The notes below the pieces were generated by a model, which saw only the letters and a list, made by a program, of their open reading frames with translations, was not told the DNA's origin and did not search any database. Both the position numbers and the translations under genes were made by a program. From assembly GCA_000146465.1 (NCBI GenBank), contig CP001948.1: a stretch of 64,000 bases of DNA; one strand, 5' to 3'. Numbering within the stretch: the stretch's first letter is position 1; each line of letters opens with the position of its first letter. Below are positions 14,046 through 21,393 of the stretch, piece after piece.

Positions 14046-14290
14046 AGTCTTGAGATTATGAAAATCGTGGTTTAAATAGTTTTTCTTGCTCTTACAATGT
14101 TTTGGATCTACCAATAGTCCACGGGCCTATGCCTGAAACACTTCTCAGATTGATCCACCTATTCTTCTTGCAGTGTCTGTTATGGAGTCTTAATGGATAC
14201 AGATCACATAGACCAAGCTTTTCTTCTGGCCCTGTTAAGCAGACCGGGCTTATATCATGGATTTTATACTTGGAAATTAAGGCCCTTGAA

Positions 14291-15178
14291 ATGGTAGTAC
14301 AGGAGAGGAAAGACAACCTTCCTCCAAAGGGACTAAGAAATAGAGGGAACACTTGTTTCTTCAACTCGGCAATGCAATGCATTCTATCGATCGGCGAGCT
14401 CAACACCTTCTACAAGAACACGGATTTCCCAAAAGAAAAAGTAATATCTAATGCATTTAAACAATTCATATCGGAGTATGAAAGTCGGGGACACAACGAC
14501 CCAAAGAGTCTTATCGATAAGCTTAGTACAAAGATAAAGCTGTTCAACGGGATGCAGCAGGATTCCCATGAGTTTCTTATTCAATTCATTGATCTGTTGT
14601 ATACGGAATCGGATAGAAACAAAGGTAGATTTGAATCAAGAGAAGAGTTTGAGGAGGTTCGGAAACACAATCTGATTGCAAAGACTTTGTTTTCGATGGA
14701 TAGACAGGTATTAACATGCGAAGCATGCAGTTATTCCTCTGTGACACTTGCTATAAACAGCACGATTCTTGTAGAGCCCCGTGAGACTATCCAACTAGGA
14801 ATAGACCAGTGTTACGAAGAGGTGAAGCTTGAGGGAAAGGATGCCTGGAAATGCGACAAGTGTGGAAAAAAGAAGAGCTCTAAAAAGAAGATAGAGATTC
14901 TTGTTCATCCCGAAGTTCTAATAATTCATATCTCAAGATTCCATCCACAAGGGTGGAAGAATACAGCAAGTGTCAATATTGATGACACATTGTTTTTCAA
15001 CAATAGAAAATACAGTCTTTTTGGGGTTGTTTGCCAGAATGGAACTCTGAGCGGAGGACATTATTTTGCAGAGGCCAAAAGATCTGGTACATGGAATGTG
15101 TACAATGACGAGCAGGTGACAAAAGGCTCCAAGACCTACAGTGGAGCACATCCTTACATAGTTTTCTATGCTCTTTAA
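14291..15178 (+). CDS. Ubiquitin carboxyl-terminal hydrolase (USP, peptidase C19), minimal
   Basis: Cys box 'GLRNRGNTCFFNSAMQCI' and His box 'GGHYFAEAKR…WNVYNDEQV'. The start was set to ATG 'MVVQERK'; the TTG start at 14102 is unlikely. Confidence 0.7.
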   Translation: MVVQERKDNLPPKGLRNRGNTCFFNSAMQCILSIGELNTFYKNTDFPKEKVISNAFKQFISEYESRGHNDPKSLIDKLSTKIKLFNGMQQDSHEFLIQFIDLLYTESDRNKGRFESREEFEEVRKHNLIAKTLFSMDRQVLTCEACSYSSVTLAINSTILVEPRETIQLGIDQCYEEVKLEGKDAWKCDKCGKKKSSKKKIEILVHPEVLIIHISRFHPQGWKNTASVNIDDTLFFNNRKYSLFGVVCQNGTLSGGHYFAEAKRSGTWNVYNDEQVTKGSKTYSGAHPYIVFYAL

Positions 15179-15335: not shown

Positions 15336-16142
15336 ATGGTATTTTGTATGGAAAACTTCTGGAGCATAGTTCCATGCAGGAGTAAAAGAGAGGAGAAGGT
15401 TATTAAAAGTACCTATCTAAAGAGCTATGAGGCAACTCAAAGTGAATGTGAATCGGATTTTTTTTCCGATAGCGGTGGACTTGACGAAGCACGTGGGAAG
15501 GACAACTCCCGACGGATGAAAAGAAATGAAAGAAATATTTCTAAAAAAATCCGGAAAACAAGTTCTAGCATGGTTTCAGAGCCAAGAATCGATGAAAAGA
15601 AGAAACAAAAGCCAAGGACCAATAGTACTGTGAGTAGCGAGGAACTTTGGAGTGGTGAGGATGAAGAAATAGTTGATCAAACAGAGTCTTTCAGCGGATT
15701 CAAAGAAAGGAAAAGAGATAGGAATAGAAGAGGGAAGTCGGAAGGTAATAGAGAAGTCTCTTCAGAGGATTCACACTTTGAAGACATCCAGGGCCCGAGG
15801 AGATCTTCTAGGACAATAGATGCATCTGCCAAGAAGACCGAGATACTTGAGAAGTATAGAAGTAGGATATATCGTGACAACAAAAAATCCCGCGATCCCG
15901 AGGATATTTCAAGGGAATCTGGAATCGAATCAAACGATTATGGAAAAGAGGAAAGGTTTTCTAAGTCGCAAGGGCTTAATAGATTTGGAGACTCCAAAGT
16001 AAATGAAAGAGATGCCCGCAACTTTGATGATAGCGAAAGCGAAATCAACTTTATAATGGACGTATACGACAAATCATCACTGAATAATAGCTTGAGAGAA
16101 AAGATGTTTGAATACCTTAACCAAATAGGGAGGAAAGGATAA
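15336..16142 (+). CDS. Hypothetical charged, S/K/E/R-rich protein, possibly nuclear or nucleolar
   Basis: The ORF is long and of biased composition, with no recognisable domain. Confidence 0.25.
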   Translation: MVFCMENFWSIVPCRSKREEKVIKSTYLKSYEATQSECESDFFSDSGGLDEARGKDNSRRMKRNERNISKKIRKTSSSMVSEPRIDEKKKQKPRTNSTVSSEELWSGEDEEIVDQTESFSGFKERKRDRNRRGKSEGNREVSSEDSHFEDIQGPRRSSRTIDASAKKTEILEKYRSRIYRDNKKSRDPEDISRESGIESNDYGKEERFSKSQGLNRFGDSKVNERDARNFDDSESEINFIMDVYDKSSLNNSLREKMFEYLNQIGRKG

Positions 16143-16186: not shown

Positions 16187-17128
16187 TTAATTCTGTTCCA
16201 TCTGAACAGGATGGACAAGCCTTTCCTGATTTCCAACAAATATATTTCTTATTTTATCGCTCTGCTTCTCGCCTAAAGGTCTGGAATTCTTTCCATCGGA
16301 GTCCCAGACTTTAAATTCCTTTAGCAATCCGCTGTTGTCCCCTTTAAGAAATGAATGGAGATTACTAATGCTTTGGAAGTGAAGAGATAGGCTACGGGCT
16401 GCATTTATTCCTATTCCCGGAATGTTCTGTAAAACATTTTGGAGATGCTCAATCTTTTGATTTGAAGAAAATGTCTTTGTTTTTGGTACGTGGACGCTCT
16501 CTGAATACAGATGCCTTACTATGGCTTTCAGTTCTCGAGGAAGATCCTCAGGATCATCGATAAAGACAAAGTTTCTACCGTTCTTGATTTGTGTGAGATA
16601 GATTTCCTCCATCTTTTTTTCATATTCATTTTTCTTCCTGACGTATTTTTTTCCTTCTTCCAATGCTTTTCTATATTCCTTGTCTTCTCTCGCTTTTACA
16701 GAACTCCGATATTTGTTTCTGTTCACTACAAAAGAGATGTTGCGGCCACAAGCCTCAATTCCATCCTTTTCCAAATCGATAACTCCTAGAGAATATACTG
16801 TCTTATGGTTATTACATTCAACTATCTCTAAGGACTGGTCCGCGGAAAACTTGTAAACAAATTTCCGGTCCTTTATCTTGTTTACAAACCTCTCTAAGGT
16901 TTGAGGAAAGACAAAGTAATGGTTTGCAAAGGCCGAGTCAAGATTCTTCGGAAATGAATTCTGCTGTGTTTCTGAGGATGCCTTTAGCTGAGGAGCATTA
17001 GATATGGAGAGTGGAATGTCGAGAATGGTAATCGAACTGTCGGTATCGGGGACGTTTCCTGAAGATCTTTCATTCCCTACACTGCTCCTTTCCAAATATT
17101 CCATGAGATTTACATGCTGGCTGTTCAT
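16187..17128 (-). CDS. ERCC4-(HhH)2 family protein, probably a non-catalytic partner subunit (ERCC1/Rad10- or EME1/Mms4-like)
   Basis: C-terminal tandem helix-hairpin-helix 'LQNIPGIGINAARSLSLHF…' and '…RPLGEKQSDKIRNIF'. The ERCC4-like core upstream has 'GR' but no catalytic ERK ('DLEKDG'). Confidence 0.4.
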   Translation of the reverse strand: MNSQHVNLMEYLERSSVGNERSSGNVPDTDSSITILDIPLSISNAPQLKASSETQQNSFPKNLDSAFANHYFVFPQTLERFVNKIKDRKFVYKFSADQSLEIVECNNHKTVYSLGVIDLEKDGIEACGRNISFVVNRNKYRSSVKAREDKEYRKALEEGKKYVRKKNEYEKKMEEIYLTQIKNGRNFVFIDDPEDLPRELKAIVRHLYSESVHVPKTKTFSSNQKIEHLQNVLQNIPGIGINAARSLSLHFQSISNLHSFLKGDNSGLLKEFKVWDSDGKNSRPLGEKQSDKIRNIFVGNQERLVHPVQMEQN

Positions 17129-17159: not shown

Positions 17160-18653
17160 CTACCCTCTCTTTGGATTCTCAGGAAGAAGCTTAATATACC
17201 CTCTTCTATTAGTATTAAGGTGAAGCTCCTTGGATCTCGAAGGATTTAGATAAAACATCCGAATGGCCTGTCCAACTTTGATGTCTGGGGAAGGATTCCA
17301 CCATGTCACTGTGCATTCTCCGCTACTATCTCTGACCAGTAGCTTGGTATACATAGTGATCCTTACATCATGCGACGAAAAGACTCTTTCTGCTTTCCTT
17401 GCGAGATCTTCTATTCTATCCAGTTCGGGTTCGAGATCATCAGTTGTATTGCTATAATTCTCCACTTTTACAAAATACTTTGTTTCGATGATCTTTATAA
17501 CAACCCCTTCAATGCAGCAGACAGGGCCTCCATTGCTAAGGATTTCCGATATCTTAAGTCTGAACCCTATTCTTTTTCTATATCCAAGTCTTCTCTTGGA
17601 ATGGACTACTCGGACTCCATTGTAATGCAGCTTAAGACGGACATTCTCACAATCAAAAATGGATATTGGCGTGCTTCCCTCAAGATCTGCCCCAAAGACC
17701 TTAAGTCTAAATCCAACTCGGATCTCCTTCTTTTCTATCTTTTTTTGGAGAGCCTCGTCATATGATGCATAGAGACTGTGATATCCATCAAATACCTCAA
17801 TCTTTTCTCCATCTATTCCAACAACCAAGAGGATCATATATCTCCAAGGGACATCGTCCCCCTCCAGAATTCTCCGAAGTACAGAATACTCATTCTCTAG
17901 TCTTATCCTAACCTGCTCTTCTATTCTATCTACAAAATCATTAAACTCCAGCCGTCTCCTCCCAAGGAAAAAATAAATCCACGCCCATGTAAACTGAGCA
18001 AAAACTCGGTTCGTATCTTCTGCAGGAAACCTCTTTTTCATCTCCCTATAAACCCTCTCAGGATCTATTTCTACTTCTTCCCTCTCCACTCTTCGAGATA
18101 AATTGTCCTGCGCTTCTCCATTTGTATCTACTTTTTCCATTCCATCTTCGAATATTTTATATGCTGAGCGAATACTCTCCCTTCGCACCTGGATCTTCTT
18201 TTTAGATCCTGTTGTAAACCCTGAAAACATCATATCTTCATTGGTGTTCCCTCCTTCGCCAAGATCTATATCCAAGATATGATCAGAATCCAAAGATAAG
18301 CGCTTTTGAGGAAAAGTATTGGGATTGTTTTCATCAGTGCTTGTTACACCGATGCTGTTTGTAGAATTAGCATTCATGGCTTTGCATCCATCTTCAGGAC
18401 TCTCAGGAATCCGAGATGAGTCCGAGTTGAAGTCGTAGAATGTTTGATTTTCCTGTTCTAAGGACTCGGATACATCGGGTTCCTCCCCTGCAGTGTTATC
18501 TTTACGGCAAGCATTGTCTGAGCTAAAAAAAATCATATCATCACAACTTACTTGGATTGAATCAAGGACGCTGAAAGAGTCTTCTGTCTCTTCTTCGCTG
18601 TTGCTACTGCTTTGGAAGAAACTTTCAAATTCAACCTCCGAGCCTGCATCCAT
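17160..18653 (-). CDS. BRCA2-like recombination mediator with a single BRC repeat
   Basis: 'FSGFTTGSKKKIQVRRESIRSAYKIFED' matches the BRC consensus 'FxTASGKxIxVSxESLxKAxxLFxE'. The acidic N-terminus and a C-terminal β-rich region are consistent with an OB-fold DNA-binding domain. Confidence 0.45.
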   Translation of the reverse strand: MDAGSEVEFESFFQSSSNSEEETEDSFSVLDSIQVSCDDMIFFSSDNACRKDNTAGEEPDVSESLEQENQTFYDFNSDSSRIPESPEDGCKAMNANSTNSIGVTSTDENNPNTFPQKRLSLDSDHILDIDLGEGGNTNEDMMFSGFTTGSKKKIQVRRESIRSAYKIFEDGMEKVDTNGEAQDNLSRRVEREEVEIDPERVYREMKKRFPAEDTNRVFAQFTWAWIYFFLGRRRLEFNDFVDRIEEQVRIRLENEYSVLRRILEGDDVPWRYMILLVVGIDGEKIEVFDGYHSLYASYDEALQKKIEKKEIRVGFRLKVFGADLEGSTPISIFDCENVRLKLHYNGVRVVHSKRRLGYRKRIGFRLKISEILSNGGPVCCIEGVVIKIIETKYFVKVENYSNTTDDLEPELDRIEDLARKAERVFSSHDVRITMYTKLLVRDSSGECTVTWWNPSPDIKVGQAIRMFYLNPSRSKELHLNTNRRGYIKLLPENPKRG

Positions 18654-18702: not shown

Positions 18703-21393
18703 TTATTCTGTTCTCAATCCGAACAGATTGTTTCTATCGTTGTTCACTAGAAACCAAACAGTTTTGAAGAAGTGTTCGGGAAGGATGAGGGATGAGTTTG
18801 ACTTGGCTGTGTTTGGGTCGTTGTAGTATGATTCCTTCTCAATCTCCTTGGTATCCTTGATTCCTAGCTCAGACAGCGGAAGAATATCGACATCTGGCCC
18901 TCCTCCCATTTCAGACCAGCTTTCTAGAAGATTGACTCTTTCCACAAGAACCCTCTCTGTAAAGGTGTCCAAATACTCCTCTTCCTTGATGTTTAGAGGA
19001 TAGAAGTGGCAGGACTTGTAGAACATCTTCTTAAGGCTACTGCGGAATATAAATGTGATCAGAATAATGGGAAGAAGAAACATCGAGAGGTAAAATCTCT
19101 TGTCCGAAGACATCTTTGCAAAGGTTGCCACCTGGAAAAATATAAGCGAAAACATTATGTTCTGGCATGCAGAGTCCCAATATCCCCCTCCGGACTCATA
19201 CTGGTTTCTAGAAGCATACAAAAACTCCGACTTAAACGTTAAGTAGTTGCATAAGTAGAAAAACGCTCCGAGTAGAAGGATTGGCGGGCATATGACTGCG
19301 TAGACAATAGACATCGAAAATACAGTCAGACACGACGGGAATATGGTCCCGAAGTCAAATGGAGGAGAGAACTCGGCATCGAATCTTTCCCTCCTTGTCT
19401 TTCTCCCCGTAAATGGAAAGATAATGTAATTTATCAGCAACGGAGCAGGCTTCAGCAGTGTTAATGCAGTTCCCACTAAGGTCCTTTGGATAATTGTATT
19501 TGCGAAAAATACAGACGATTCTAGGGACTCATTACTGAACGCCTTGATGACATTGTATATTCTTTCATTTCGGAACAGAACATCTGCAAAGAGCCTATAG
19601 AAGCTTGATGCAAAGAACACCGAGACAAACCCGTTGAAGAACAGGAAGTTGGAGAGTTTGTCCATCAGCTTCTGTTGGAAAGTTGAGTATGAGTAGATTC
19701 CTTCCATGTTCACAAGTGCGGTTATGATCGTAGGGACAAACACCATCATGGAGTTGTAAATAAGTGGGAATAAGATTCCTCGCAAGGAGTCGGTGATAGT
19801 CTCATGCTTGTCCAGAAACGAGGATATAAGCTTGTTTTCTCTAAACATCTCGGTGCTTACTAGCAAAGTAACAATGTTGGCAACTATCGACGAGAATAGG
19901 ATGATAAAAAGAATGAAAAACACCGCCCCAAAGACACTGTACATGTAGTTTTCGACCTCGCTGTTTGTTATGTTCTCCCAGATGACGTCGTTCGGTGCCG
20001 GGGCATCTTCCGATGCGACCGAAAATATTCTTGATCCTATTTGTGACTGCTTCACTATATTTGCACTTCTCTGGTCCTTGAACGTAACAAATCCTCTTTT
20101 GGTTTTTGAGGGGAGGTCTAGAGTAAAGTACATCTTGTAGTTGCTGTAATTGAGTATGTGATGAAACGAAAAGAAGCTTGCATCCTGCGATATGTCACCT
20201 TGCAGGAAAAGAGTGTTATTGTGTGAAACTAGCTCGACAATCCTAACGTCCTTATTCCTTGCTTCCTCATTTTTTATGATCTCCTTTTCCTTGCTAATTC
20301 TGCCATTCACGTTATTCAGTTTTTCCAAATAGAAGTTTACCTTTGGGATATCTTCCTTGAGTGTGTTTTCGAACTGCTTGGCTCCGTCCAAAAATAGAAC
20401 AATAAGTTGTCTCTTCTGTGAAGAATCAAAAACACCCTCTATGTTGGCCTCCTCAACAGTTTTGAGGATGCTCTCTTTAAATCCAGATATACTTTCTGCA
20501 CATGCTTCCTGATTCTTTTCCGACCAGTCTTGCATCTTTGCAAACTTTTCATTGATTTCTTTCTCGATGTTATAGATGTAGCTGTCCTTCTCACTATAAA
20601 GACTCTGCAAAGTATTGGTATCATATACGAGTACACAGTCATCAATCTCTCCAACTCCGAGGGAATCAATAAACTCAAAGAGATCTATATCGTTATTCAC
20701 ATAGCTTGGTAGTCTCGAGAGAATTAGCGTTCTGTTTGGAAGGTTGACATACTCTGTAGACTTCTCGGCACTTCCAAGGTTGTTTGAGAGTCTCTTCAGT
20801 GTTATTATGGACGTCATTATTGCTGGGTTGCGTAGATATGCTTGCCTTAGAACGATATATCTTTTGTAGTATATAAAGATAGAGTACATTATAAAGGCAG
20901 ATATAAGGTACACAACAGGTATTATGAATCCATAACTTTCGGACTTTGGGTCCAAGCTTCCTAGAGAAAGTCTAACAAGCCATTGATCAGAATTCTCGAC
21001 GTTCTCCCGCTGGTTTGTCCAGAACAAATATCCCAGAGATGGGATAACAAAGAAAGATAGGACAAAGAGAATTCTGTACAGCATCTTCAATGTCTGCAGC
21101 ATCATAAATGCATCTAATCCTATGATTGATAAGAGTATTGTGTCGCTTACCGTCACAACAGGAATGATCCAGCTAAGAAACCCGGTGTAGTTATAGCACG
21201 GATGGCAAGGTCTGTCTTTGACGTTGGGTGAATAAAGCCATCTTGCCCTCTTTCTGAAGATGATGTACACTATTAGGATACAGACTGTGATAAATCCCTG
21301 GGACACTATGTTTGTCAACACAGCATTGTCAGCCCCCTTCAGAGGAGGCTTTTCTACTGCCTTCCCCATGTTTTCCTTGTCAGCATCGGCCAT
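18703..21393 (-). CDS. OSCA/TMEM63/CSC1-family (DUF221) calcium-permeable mechano/osmosensitive channel
   Basis: An 896-aa polytopic protein with the N-terminal 'FRKRARWLYSPN' motif, a cytosolic PHM7-like domain and a C-terminal 7TM block. Confidence 0.55.
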   Translation of the reverse strand: MADADKENMGKAVEKPPLKGADNAVLTNIVSQGFITVCILIVYIIFRKRARWLYSPNVKDRPCHPCYNYTGFLSWIIPVVTVSDTILLSIIGLDAFMMLQTLKMLYRILFVLSFFVIPSLGYLFWTNQRENVENSDQWLVRLSLGSLDPKSESYGFIIPVVYLISAFIMYSIFIYYKRYIVLRQAYLRNPAIMTSIITLKRLSNNLGSAEKSTEYVNLPNRTLILSRLPSYVNNDIDLFEFIDSLGVGEIDDCVLVYDTNTLQSLYSEKDSYIYNIEKEINEKFAKMQDWSEKNQEACAESISGFKESILKTVEEANIEGVFDSSQKRQLIVLFLDGAKQFENTLKEDIPKVNFYLEKLNNVNGRISKEKEIIKNEEARNKDVRIVELVSHNNTLFLQGDISQDASFFSFHHILNYSNYKMYFTLDLPSKTKRGFVTFKDQRSANIVKQSQIGSRIFSVASEDAPAPNDVIWENITNSEVENYMYSVFGAVFFILFIILFSSIVANIVTLLVSTEMFRENKLISSFLDKHETITDSLRGILFPLIYNSMMVFVPTIITALVNMEGIYSYSTFQQKLMDKLSNFLFFNGFVSVFFASSFYRLFADVLFRNERIYNVIKAFSNESLESSVFFANTIIQRTLVGTALTLLKPAPLLINYIIFPFTGRKTRRERFDAEFSPPFDFGTIFPSCLTVFSMSIVYAVICPPILLLGAFFYLCNYLTFKSEFLYASRNQYESGGGYWDSACQNIMFSLIFFQVATFAKMSSDKRFYLSMFLLPIILITFIFRSSLKKMFYKSCHFYPLNIKEEEYLDTFTERVLVERVNLLESWSEMGGGPDVDILPLSELGIKDTKEIEKESYYNDPNTAKSNSSLILPEHFFKTVWFLVNNDRNNLFGLRTE

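Follow-up and report, generated by a model that had tools for sequence, protein, structure and literature searches.

Does a gene on the minus strand of contig CP001948.1 (GenBank assembly GCA_000146465.1) of Encephalitozoon intestinalis ATCC 50506 encode a BRCA2 protein, and if so, in what form? The question concerns positions 17160 to 18653 of a 64,000-nucleotide stretch of this contig (the window), which is compact, has about 39 to 47% G+C and carries gene-dense open reading frames (ORFs) on both strands. A first-pass annotation, made from the sequence alone, had proposed that these positions encode a BRCA2/Brh2-like protein with a single BRC repeat. The ORF is indeed present: according to the ORF list and its translation, it is a complete coding sequence that starts with ATG and encodes 497 amino acids, with its stop codon at 17160-17162. 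By exact-sequence look-up in the protein collection, the product is identical to Eint_070380 (ADM11802.1) of E. intestinalis. A TTG codon 48 nucleotides upstream would give a 513-residue version; this longer form was not found in the protein collection, and the equivalent methionine is the start in all orthologs of Eint_070380 (alignment, n = 14).

The membership of Eint_070380 in the BRCA2 family is secure, because Pfam profiles, sequence matches in the Protein Data Bank (PDB), the Foldseek ranking and the relatives retrieved with a profile of its orthologs all support it. We consider it very probable that the gene is the E. intestinalis ortholog of BRCA2/Brh2 in very reduced form.

BRCA2 profiles and folds in Eint_070380

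Two independent BRCA2-specific Pfam profiles matched the protein above their curated cut-offs, and they did so in the canonical order, BRC followed by OB1. The single BRC repeat (FSGFTTGSKKKIQVRRESIRSAYKIFED) lies on the minus strand, as do all other features of the protein, at nucleotides 18144-18227. PF00634 matched exactly these residues, 143 to 170, over profile positions 2 to 29 of 29 (E = 7.3e-7, 29 bits against a cut-off of 20.3). The core of the repeat reads FTTG at the FxxA site and IFED at the LFDE site. OB1 follows at residues 257 to 359 (nucleotides 17577-17885), where PF09103 (BRCA-2_OB1) matched over positions 1 to 122 of 123 (E = 7.9e-18, 65 bits against a cut-off of 25.6); the boundaries of the fold itself are at residues ~264 to 365. 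The same profile was matched by all nine orthologs scanned, and the segment aligns to OB1 of mouse and rat BRCA2 (1mje, 1miu, 1iyj), including the conserved "DG" of IELTDGWY / IEVFDGYH. The first-pass annotation had put forward a Pfam search as a check and the lack of a profile hit as the contrary outcome, which did not occur. Its reading of FSGFTTGSKKKIQVRRESIRSAYKIFED as a BRC repeat is borne out by the PF00634 match, by conservation in 14 orthologs and by the tandem occurrence of the motif in long relatives.

We then compared Eint_070380 with all PDB sequences by phmmer. Only BRCA2 DNA-binding-domain chains gave significant matches, namely 1mje_A (E = 3.7e-9), 1miu_A (E = 6e-8) and 1iyj_B (E = 1.1e-7). 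The alignment to 1mje_A, which we take to be a Tower-deleted BRCA2 construct, covers residues 283 to 476 and runs from OB1 into OB2, the OB2 part being aligned with chain residues 364 to 473. When the 53-residue BRC segment was searched alone, the top PDB peptides were 8c3n_B and 1n0w_B (BRC4), both aligned without gaps; the matches were weak (E = 0.3 to 0.5), as is usual for sequences of this length.

An AlphaFold2 model was built on the alignment of the 14 microsporidian orthologs. Its mean predicted local distance difference test score (pLDDT) is only 59, because residues 1 to 138 and 164 to 193 are disordered. In agreement with the β-rich C terminus noted in the first-pass annotation, the model is beta-rich across residues 272 to 490. 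On the basis of the model and of the phmmer match to 1mje_A, we placed OB2 at residues 366 to 492 (nucleotides 17178-17558). The prediction is a beta-barrel at residues 378 to 490, with strands at residues 378-397, 400-404, 430-441, 446-452, 463-471 and 478-490, and pLDDT is 84 to 93 over residues 381 to 480. This OB2 has no Tower: at the position of the mammalian Tower, the model contains a single 14-residue helix (residues 407 to 420, nucleotides 17394-17435). When the model was compared with the PDB by Foldseek, 1mje_A, 1iyj_B and 1miu_A came out on top (E = 1.1e-16 to 2.1e-15), 342 columns being aligned to 1mje_A, and were followed by Pyrococcus RPA (E = 2.5e-8). Together, the two Pfam matches and the first-ranked BRCA2 chains uphold the BRCA2/Brh2-like identity proposed at the outset.

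The orthologs, of 461 to 523 amino acids, include those of E. cuniculi, E. hellem, E. romaleae, Ordospora colligata, O. pajunii and a Vairimorpha ceranae-type cluster. The O. pajunii protein and V. ceranae NCER_100565 are direct orthologs that share the layout of Eint_070380, at 32 to 68% identity. Mean pairwise identity is 0.54 in the BRC repeat, 0.50 in the helices that precede OB1, 0.57 in OB1 and 0.52 in OB2, compared with 0.29 in the N-terminal tail and 0.15 in the linker, and the 48 columns that are invariant among the 14 orthologs are concentrated in the BRC and OB segments. Because these segments are far better conserved than the linker and the tail, the pattern argues for a gene in which selection preserves the BRC repeat and the DNA-binding part; it also speaks against the Pfam and PDB matches being artefacts of composition. 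Within the repeat, G145, F146, T148 and G149 are invariant in all 14 orthologs, and K152, I154, V156 and S160 are nearly so; the repeat of the E. cuniculi ortholog was matched by Pfam with E = 1.3e-10. Orthology is further supported by gene order, since E. intestinalis and Vairimorpha-type contigs, from the cluster that holds the V. ceranae proteins, have in common the arrangement DUF5100 - L7Ae - RSN1 channel - BRCA2 as well as neighboring UCH and SMC genes.

An exhaustive search of representative proteins with a profile of the 14 orthologs retrieved 1291 proteins at E ≤ 1e-3, 86 of them at E ≤ 1e-30. These relatives form a continuum, from proteins of ~500 residues through proteins of 600 to 1200 residues to proteins of 2000 to 4500 residues with 13 to 23 matched stretches, which is the signature of many-repeat BRCA2. 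A profile search of a word-indexed database returned nothing past the first 14 orthologs, whereas the exhaustive search of representatives reached canonical BRCA2. In addition, a hidden Markov model (HMM) made only from the 14 microsporidian BRC segments gave 5 to 16 tandem matches in long (1400 to 4500 amino acids) BRCA2-like proteins.

The BRCA2 domain assignment as such is already known from automatic UniProt/Pfam annotation, and orthologs are named BRCA2 in GenBank. The first-pass annotation had stated that BRCA2 homologs of reduced parasites are often annotated as hypothetical; this holds for the NCBI name of Eint_070380, "uncharacterized protein", but not for its UniRef name, which is already "BRCA2 OB1 domain-containing protein". 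The UniRef entry of V. ceranae NCER_100565 carries the same name, and the O. pajunii ortholog is called "putative BRCA2 domain-containing protein". A further microsporidian entry, Conglomerata obtusa KAM0687043.1, is named "Breast cancer 2" and, judging from its length of 1162 amino acids, is less reduced. Literature searches that paired BRCA2, Brh2 or the BRC repeat with microsporidia or Encephalitozoon (also with cuniculi) turned up no description of Eint_070380.

Comparison with known BRCA2 proteins

Eint_070380 is a genuine BRCA2 ortholog, if a highly reduced one; as such it is an ordinary case and represents no new kind of biology. Its closest functional analogues are Ustilago maydis Brh2 and Caenorhabditis elegans BRC-2 (CeBRC-2). 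The likeness to minimal homologs such as Brh2, drawn in the first-pass annotation, is apt: in both proteins, one BRC repeat precedes a reduced DNA-binding domain that has OB1 and OB2 but lacks OB3, and both belong to the fungal side of the opisthokonts. Brh2 has ~1075 amino acids, is Dss1 dependent and possesses a DNA-binding region at the N terminus and an element that interacts with Rad51 at the C terminus. By comparison, the Encephalitozoon protein is about half as long, lacks both of these elements, has an acidic disordered N terminus and ends just past OB2. The two lineages are also alike in having Rad52 alongside BRCA2, as Rad52 is listed for E. cuniculi (PMC1851970) and both proteins are present in U. 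maydis (PMC13451438). According to a 2026 review, Brh2 is apparently found in all fungal phyla except the Ascomycota (PMC13451438).

Mammalian BRCA2 shares OB1 and OB2 with the microsporidian protein, and the two align at the sequence level (E = 3.7e-9) as well as in the Foldseek comparison (E = 1e-16). A gap-free alignment joins the BRC repeat to human BRC4 (1N0W), with identity at G, F, T, S, K, K, E, S and F. However, mammalian BRCA2 harbors eight BRC repeats instead of one, and these have FxTA where the Encephalitozoon repeat has FTTG. The mammalian helical domain measures ~190 amino acids and the Tower ~130; in Encephalitozoon, helices spanning ~65 amino acids and the 14-residue helix of OB2 take their places. 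Eint_070380 furthermore has no OB3, no PALB2-binding N terminus and no C-terminal TR2 site, and its chain ends at residue 497, about 5 to 7 residues past OB2, with no C-terminal Rad51-binding tail.

CeBRC-2 is likewise a naturally minimal BRCA2: it has fewer than 500 amino acids, with one BRC region and a DNA-binding part reduced to a single OB fold. The microsporidian protein has two OB folds in the AlphaFold2 model, and the two reductions are independent. With its 497 residues, Eint_070380 is among the smallest BRCA2 homologs that have a BRC repeat and two OB folds, and it could serve as a convenient minimal model.

Apart from the BRC repeat and the OB folds, three regions make up the protein. 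The first is an acidic, Ser/Thr-rich and disordered N-terminal region (residues 1 to 140, nucleotides 18234-18653), defined by composition and pLDDT. Over residues 1 to 142, D+E amount to 23.9% and K+R to 4.2%, in line with the acidic N terminus of the first-pass annotation; pLDDT is below 50 for residues 1 to 138, and no Pfam family matched residues 1 to 142 at E ≤ 10. At its extreme N terminus, this region carries an acidic/aromatic motif, SEVEFE(S/D)FFQSS, at residues 5 to 16 (residues 5 to 12 corresponding to nucleotides 18618-18641). In the form (S/D)E(V/L)(E/D/G)FE(D/E/S)FF(Q/R)SS the motif is kept in the Encephalitozoon and Ordospora orthologs, while the remainder is variable, and the acidic disordered N terminus is a lineage-specific tail. 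The second region is the variable linker at residues 171 to 197 (nucleotides 18063-18143), with pLDDT below 50 at residues 164 to 193. The third, preceding OB1 at residues 198 to 263 (nucleotides 17865-18062), has helices predicted by AlphaFold2 at 198-208, 214-230, 237-254 and 258-263. Profile matches to long BRCA2-like proteins start at about profile position 213 to 216, about 45 residues before OB1, and partly support homology of these helices to the BRCA2 helical domain, whose C-terminal helices probably survive here as a remnant.

Proposed role, rival readings and the DSS1 question

What would such a protein do? By analogy with Brh2 and other BRCA2 proteins, its function is most likely the loading of Rad51 onto single-stranded DNA (ssDNA), and from the same analogy we infer Rad51 binding, DNA binding and mediator activity. 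The single BRC repeat would bind a Rad51 monomer by mimicking the self-association motif of Rad51 (FxxA, here FTTG), and a second hydrophobic module, IFED, the equivalent of LFDE in human BRC4, would also contact Rad51. The OB1-OB2 pair would bind ssDNA at resected breaks or stalled forks. Rad51 would thereby be delivered onto RPA-coated ssDNA, and homologous recombination could start.

The genetic context reported for Encephalitozoon accommodates such a role. In its supplement, a 2024 survey of Fanconi and homologous recombination genes lists RAD51 for E. intestinalis (ADM12569.1; PMC11061109). In E. cuniculi, RAD51 and Rad52 are present and Ku70, Ku80 and Dnl4 are lacking, so that recombination is the expected route of double-strand-break repair (PMC1851970). 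Because Ku and Dnl4 are lacking, Rad51-dependent repair is probably the main such route in Encephalitozoon. The recombination toolkit of these organisms appeared so reduced that it was uncertain if recombination could operate (Gill and Fast 2007, PMC1851970); that study compared with yeast only and did not consider BRCA2, and Eint_070380 adds a probable Rad51 mediator to the toolkit. In the portions covered here, the 2024 survey, which includes the E. intestinalis assembly and uses C. elegans BRCA2 as a reference, gives only FANCW and RAD51 for this assembly in its repair-gene rows and, among microsporidia, BRCA2 only for the metchnikovellid Amphiamblys (OIR57862.1). ADM11802 was not found in its supplements, of which file 1 was covered in part (PMC11061109).

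Several observations weigh against reading Eint_070380 as a BRCA2 that works in the canonical manner. Pfam gave no match at E ≤ 10 to the Tower (PF09121), OB3 (PF09104) or the helical domain (PF09169) in Eint_070380. The missing Tower and OB3 are nevertheless compatible with membership in the family, because Brh2 and CeBRC-2 are also reduced there and these features, typical of animal and plant BRCA2, are not universal in the family. A further point is that AlphaFold2 modeled the BRC segment as a beta-hairpin followed by a helix with low confidence only (pLDDT ~38 to 52); BRC4 bound to RAD51 in 1N0W is a beta-hairpin followed by a helix. The alanine of FxxA is replaced by glycine in every one of the 14 microsporidian orthologs. 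Finally, microsporidia are reported to have no recognizable ortholog of Sem1/Rpn15 (DSS1), and one of the two sources describes the absence of Sem1 density in the 26S proteasome lid of Vairimorpha necatrix (PMC8615682; bioRxiv 10.1101/2022.07.11.499521).

The glycine and the absence of reported DSS1 in microsporidia (PMC8615682; bioRxiv 10.1101/2022.07.11.499521) also speak for the strongest of the rival explanations, namely a BRCA2-derived protein that has kept its OB folds and a weakened BRC repeat (FxxG), does not mediate Rad51 loading and serves, for instance, in ssDNA protection or fork stabilization. The same explanation would account for BRC segments that are below the Pfam cut-off or undetected in Ordospora, Vairimorpha and more distant orthologs, and for the reported lack of Rad54, Rdh54 and Srs2 in E. 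cuniculi (PMC1851970). However, a GFxTG core and downstream K/I/V/S residues that are invariant or nearly invariant across ~14 lineages are difficult to account for unless the ligand is conserved, repeats of the FxTG type also occur in the long multi-BRC relatives, and RAD51 is retained in E. intestinalis (PMC11061109). We therefore regard this explanation as improbable. As for the glycine itself, we rejected the idea that FxTG is a microsporidian peculiarity, since it is common in long multi-repeat relatives, as seen with a search HMM that is itself biased towards G.

That Eint_070380 is a functionless, decaying relic on its way to loss from a reduced genome would be in keeping with the reductive evolution typical of microsporidia and with what the protein has lost, namely the Tower and OB3, the greater part of the helical domain and any C-terminal element for Rad51 binding. 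Against this stand an intact ORF of similar length (461 to 523 amino acids) in 14 orthologs including Encephalitozoon, Ordospora and Vairimorpha, the 48 invariant columns, the region-specific conservation and the conserved synteny, and we give the idea hardly any weight. A generic RPA-like tandem OB-fold ssDNA-binding protein outside the BRCA2 family, with a BRC-like motif arising by chance, could draw on the weak single-sequence matches to BRC peptides in the PDB (E = 0.3 to 0.5), but it is of negligible probability and effectively refuted by BRCA2-specific profiles above curated thresholds for both BRC and OB1, by phmmer matches in the PDB to BRCA2 chains and not to RPA, by a gap of ~8 orders of magnitude between the Foldseek E-values of BRCA2 and RPA, and by the retrieval of many-BRC-repeat proteins with the ortholog profile.

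For a reduced BRCA2 that loads Rad51, the question of DSS1 deserves separate treatment. DSS1 is the partner that was co-crystallized with the BRCA2 DNA-binding domain in 1MIU, 1MJE and 1IYJ, and it is required for BRCA2 and Brh2 function in mammals and Ustilago. Given this requirement elsewhere and the reported lack of DSS1 in microsporidia, the mechanism may differ in detail. It is conceivable, if rather doubtful, that the BRCA2 retained by canonical microsporidia has a DNA-binding domain that functions independently of DSS1/Sem1. If so, this independence would have left its mark on the structure in the disappearance of the Tower and of most of the helical domain, and the protein would be a natural single-chain minimal BRCA2 of 497 residues. 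The conserved acidic/aromatic tail (SEVEFEDFFQSS...) might then stand in for DSS1 in cis, mimicking DNA and so aiding the displacement of RPA. Eint_070380 is in any case a test case for the question whether BRCA2 can act without DSS1.

A resemblance between EFExF in the tail and DEFEEF in DSS1 prompted us to compare the two sequences; it had no statistical support. A fused, cis-acting DSS1 homolog at the N terminus was rejected, as there was no Pfam match to PF05160 and Smith-Waterman alignments were no better than those of shuffled sequences: the 14 N-terminal tails gave z = -1.35 to +0.76 against shuffles when aligned with human DSS1, the query sequence of which had been verified against the PDB. 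A phmmer search of the 64-kb window for a DSS1-like ORF, with human DSS1 and yeast Sem1 as queries, gave nothing below E = 1.8, and the six-frame ORFs of at least 35 amino acids in this window contain no WxxxW acidic motif.

Neighboring genes and misnamed orthologs

The BRCA2 gene lies 49 nucleotides downstream of a gene for a homolog of the RSN1/CSC1/OSCA-type calcium-permeable channels with 10 transmembrane segments (18703-21393, minus strand; PF13967, PF14703, PF02714) and 55 nucleotides upstream of an uncharacterized gene of 305 codons. A UCH-family deubiquitinase is encoded at 14102-15178 on the plus strand (PF00443, E = 2.3e-36). We found no evidence for a repair-gene cluster around BRCA2 in Pfam scans of the neighboring ORFs.

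The 305-residue ORF directly downstream (16187-17104, minus strand) contains a helix-hairpin-helix (HhH)-like motif (LQNIPGIGINAARSL) that weakly resembles the UvrC C-terminal (HhH)2 domain (2nrt_A, E = 0.13). Its product has no credible Pfam match (best E = 0.23) and could be a divergent partner protein with a DNA-binding or nuclease function. A 268-residue ORF on the other strand (15336-16142, plus strand), which is called as a gene in the NCBI assembly, has a very high content of K, R, E and S and may encode a low-complexity nuclear or nucleolar protein. Neither this ORF nor a neighboring ORF of 236 residues had a Pfam match.

Some orthologs of Eint_070380 carry names of other proteins. The entries of E. 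romaleae and of the snail Biomphalaria pfeifferi are called "(putative) integral membrane protein", and V. ceranae XP_024332325.1 is called "ubiquitin c-terminal hydrolase". Both wrong names belong to nearby genes, the RSN1 channel gene being adjacent to BRCA2 and the UCH gene 3 to 5 kb away, which suggests that the three BRCA2 orthologs were misnamed by off-by-one annotation transfer. The B. pfeifferi "integral membrane protein" is 51% identical to the Encephalitozoon protein, and its presence in the snail assembly is probably due to microsporidian contamination.

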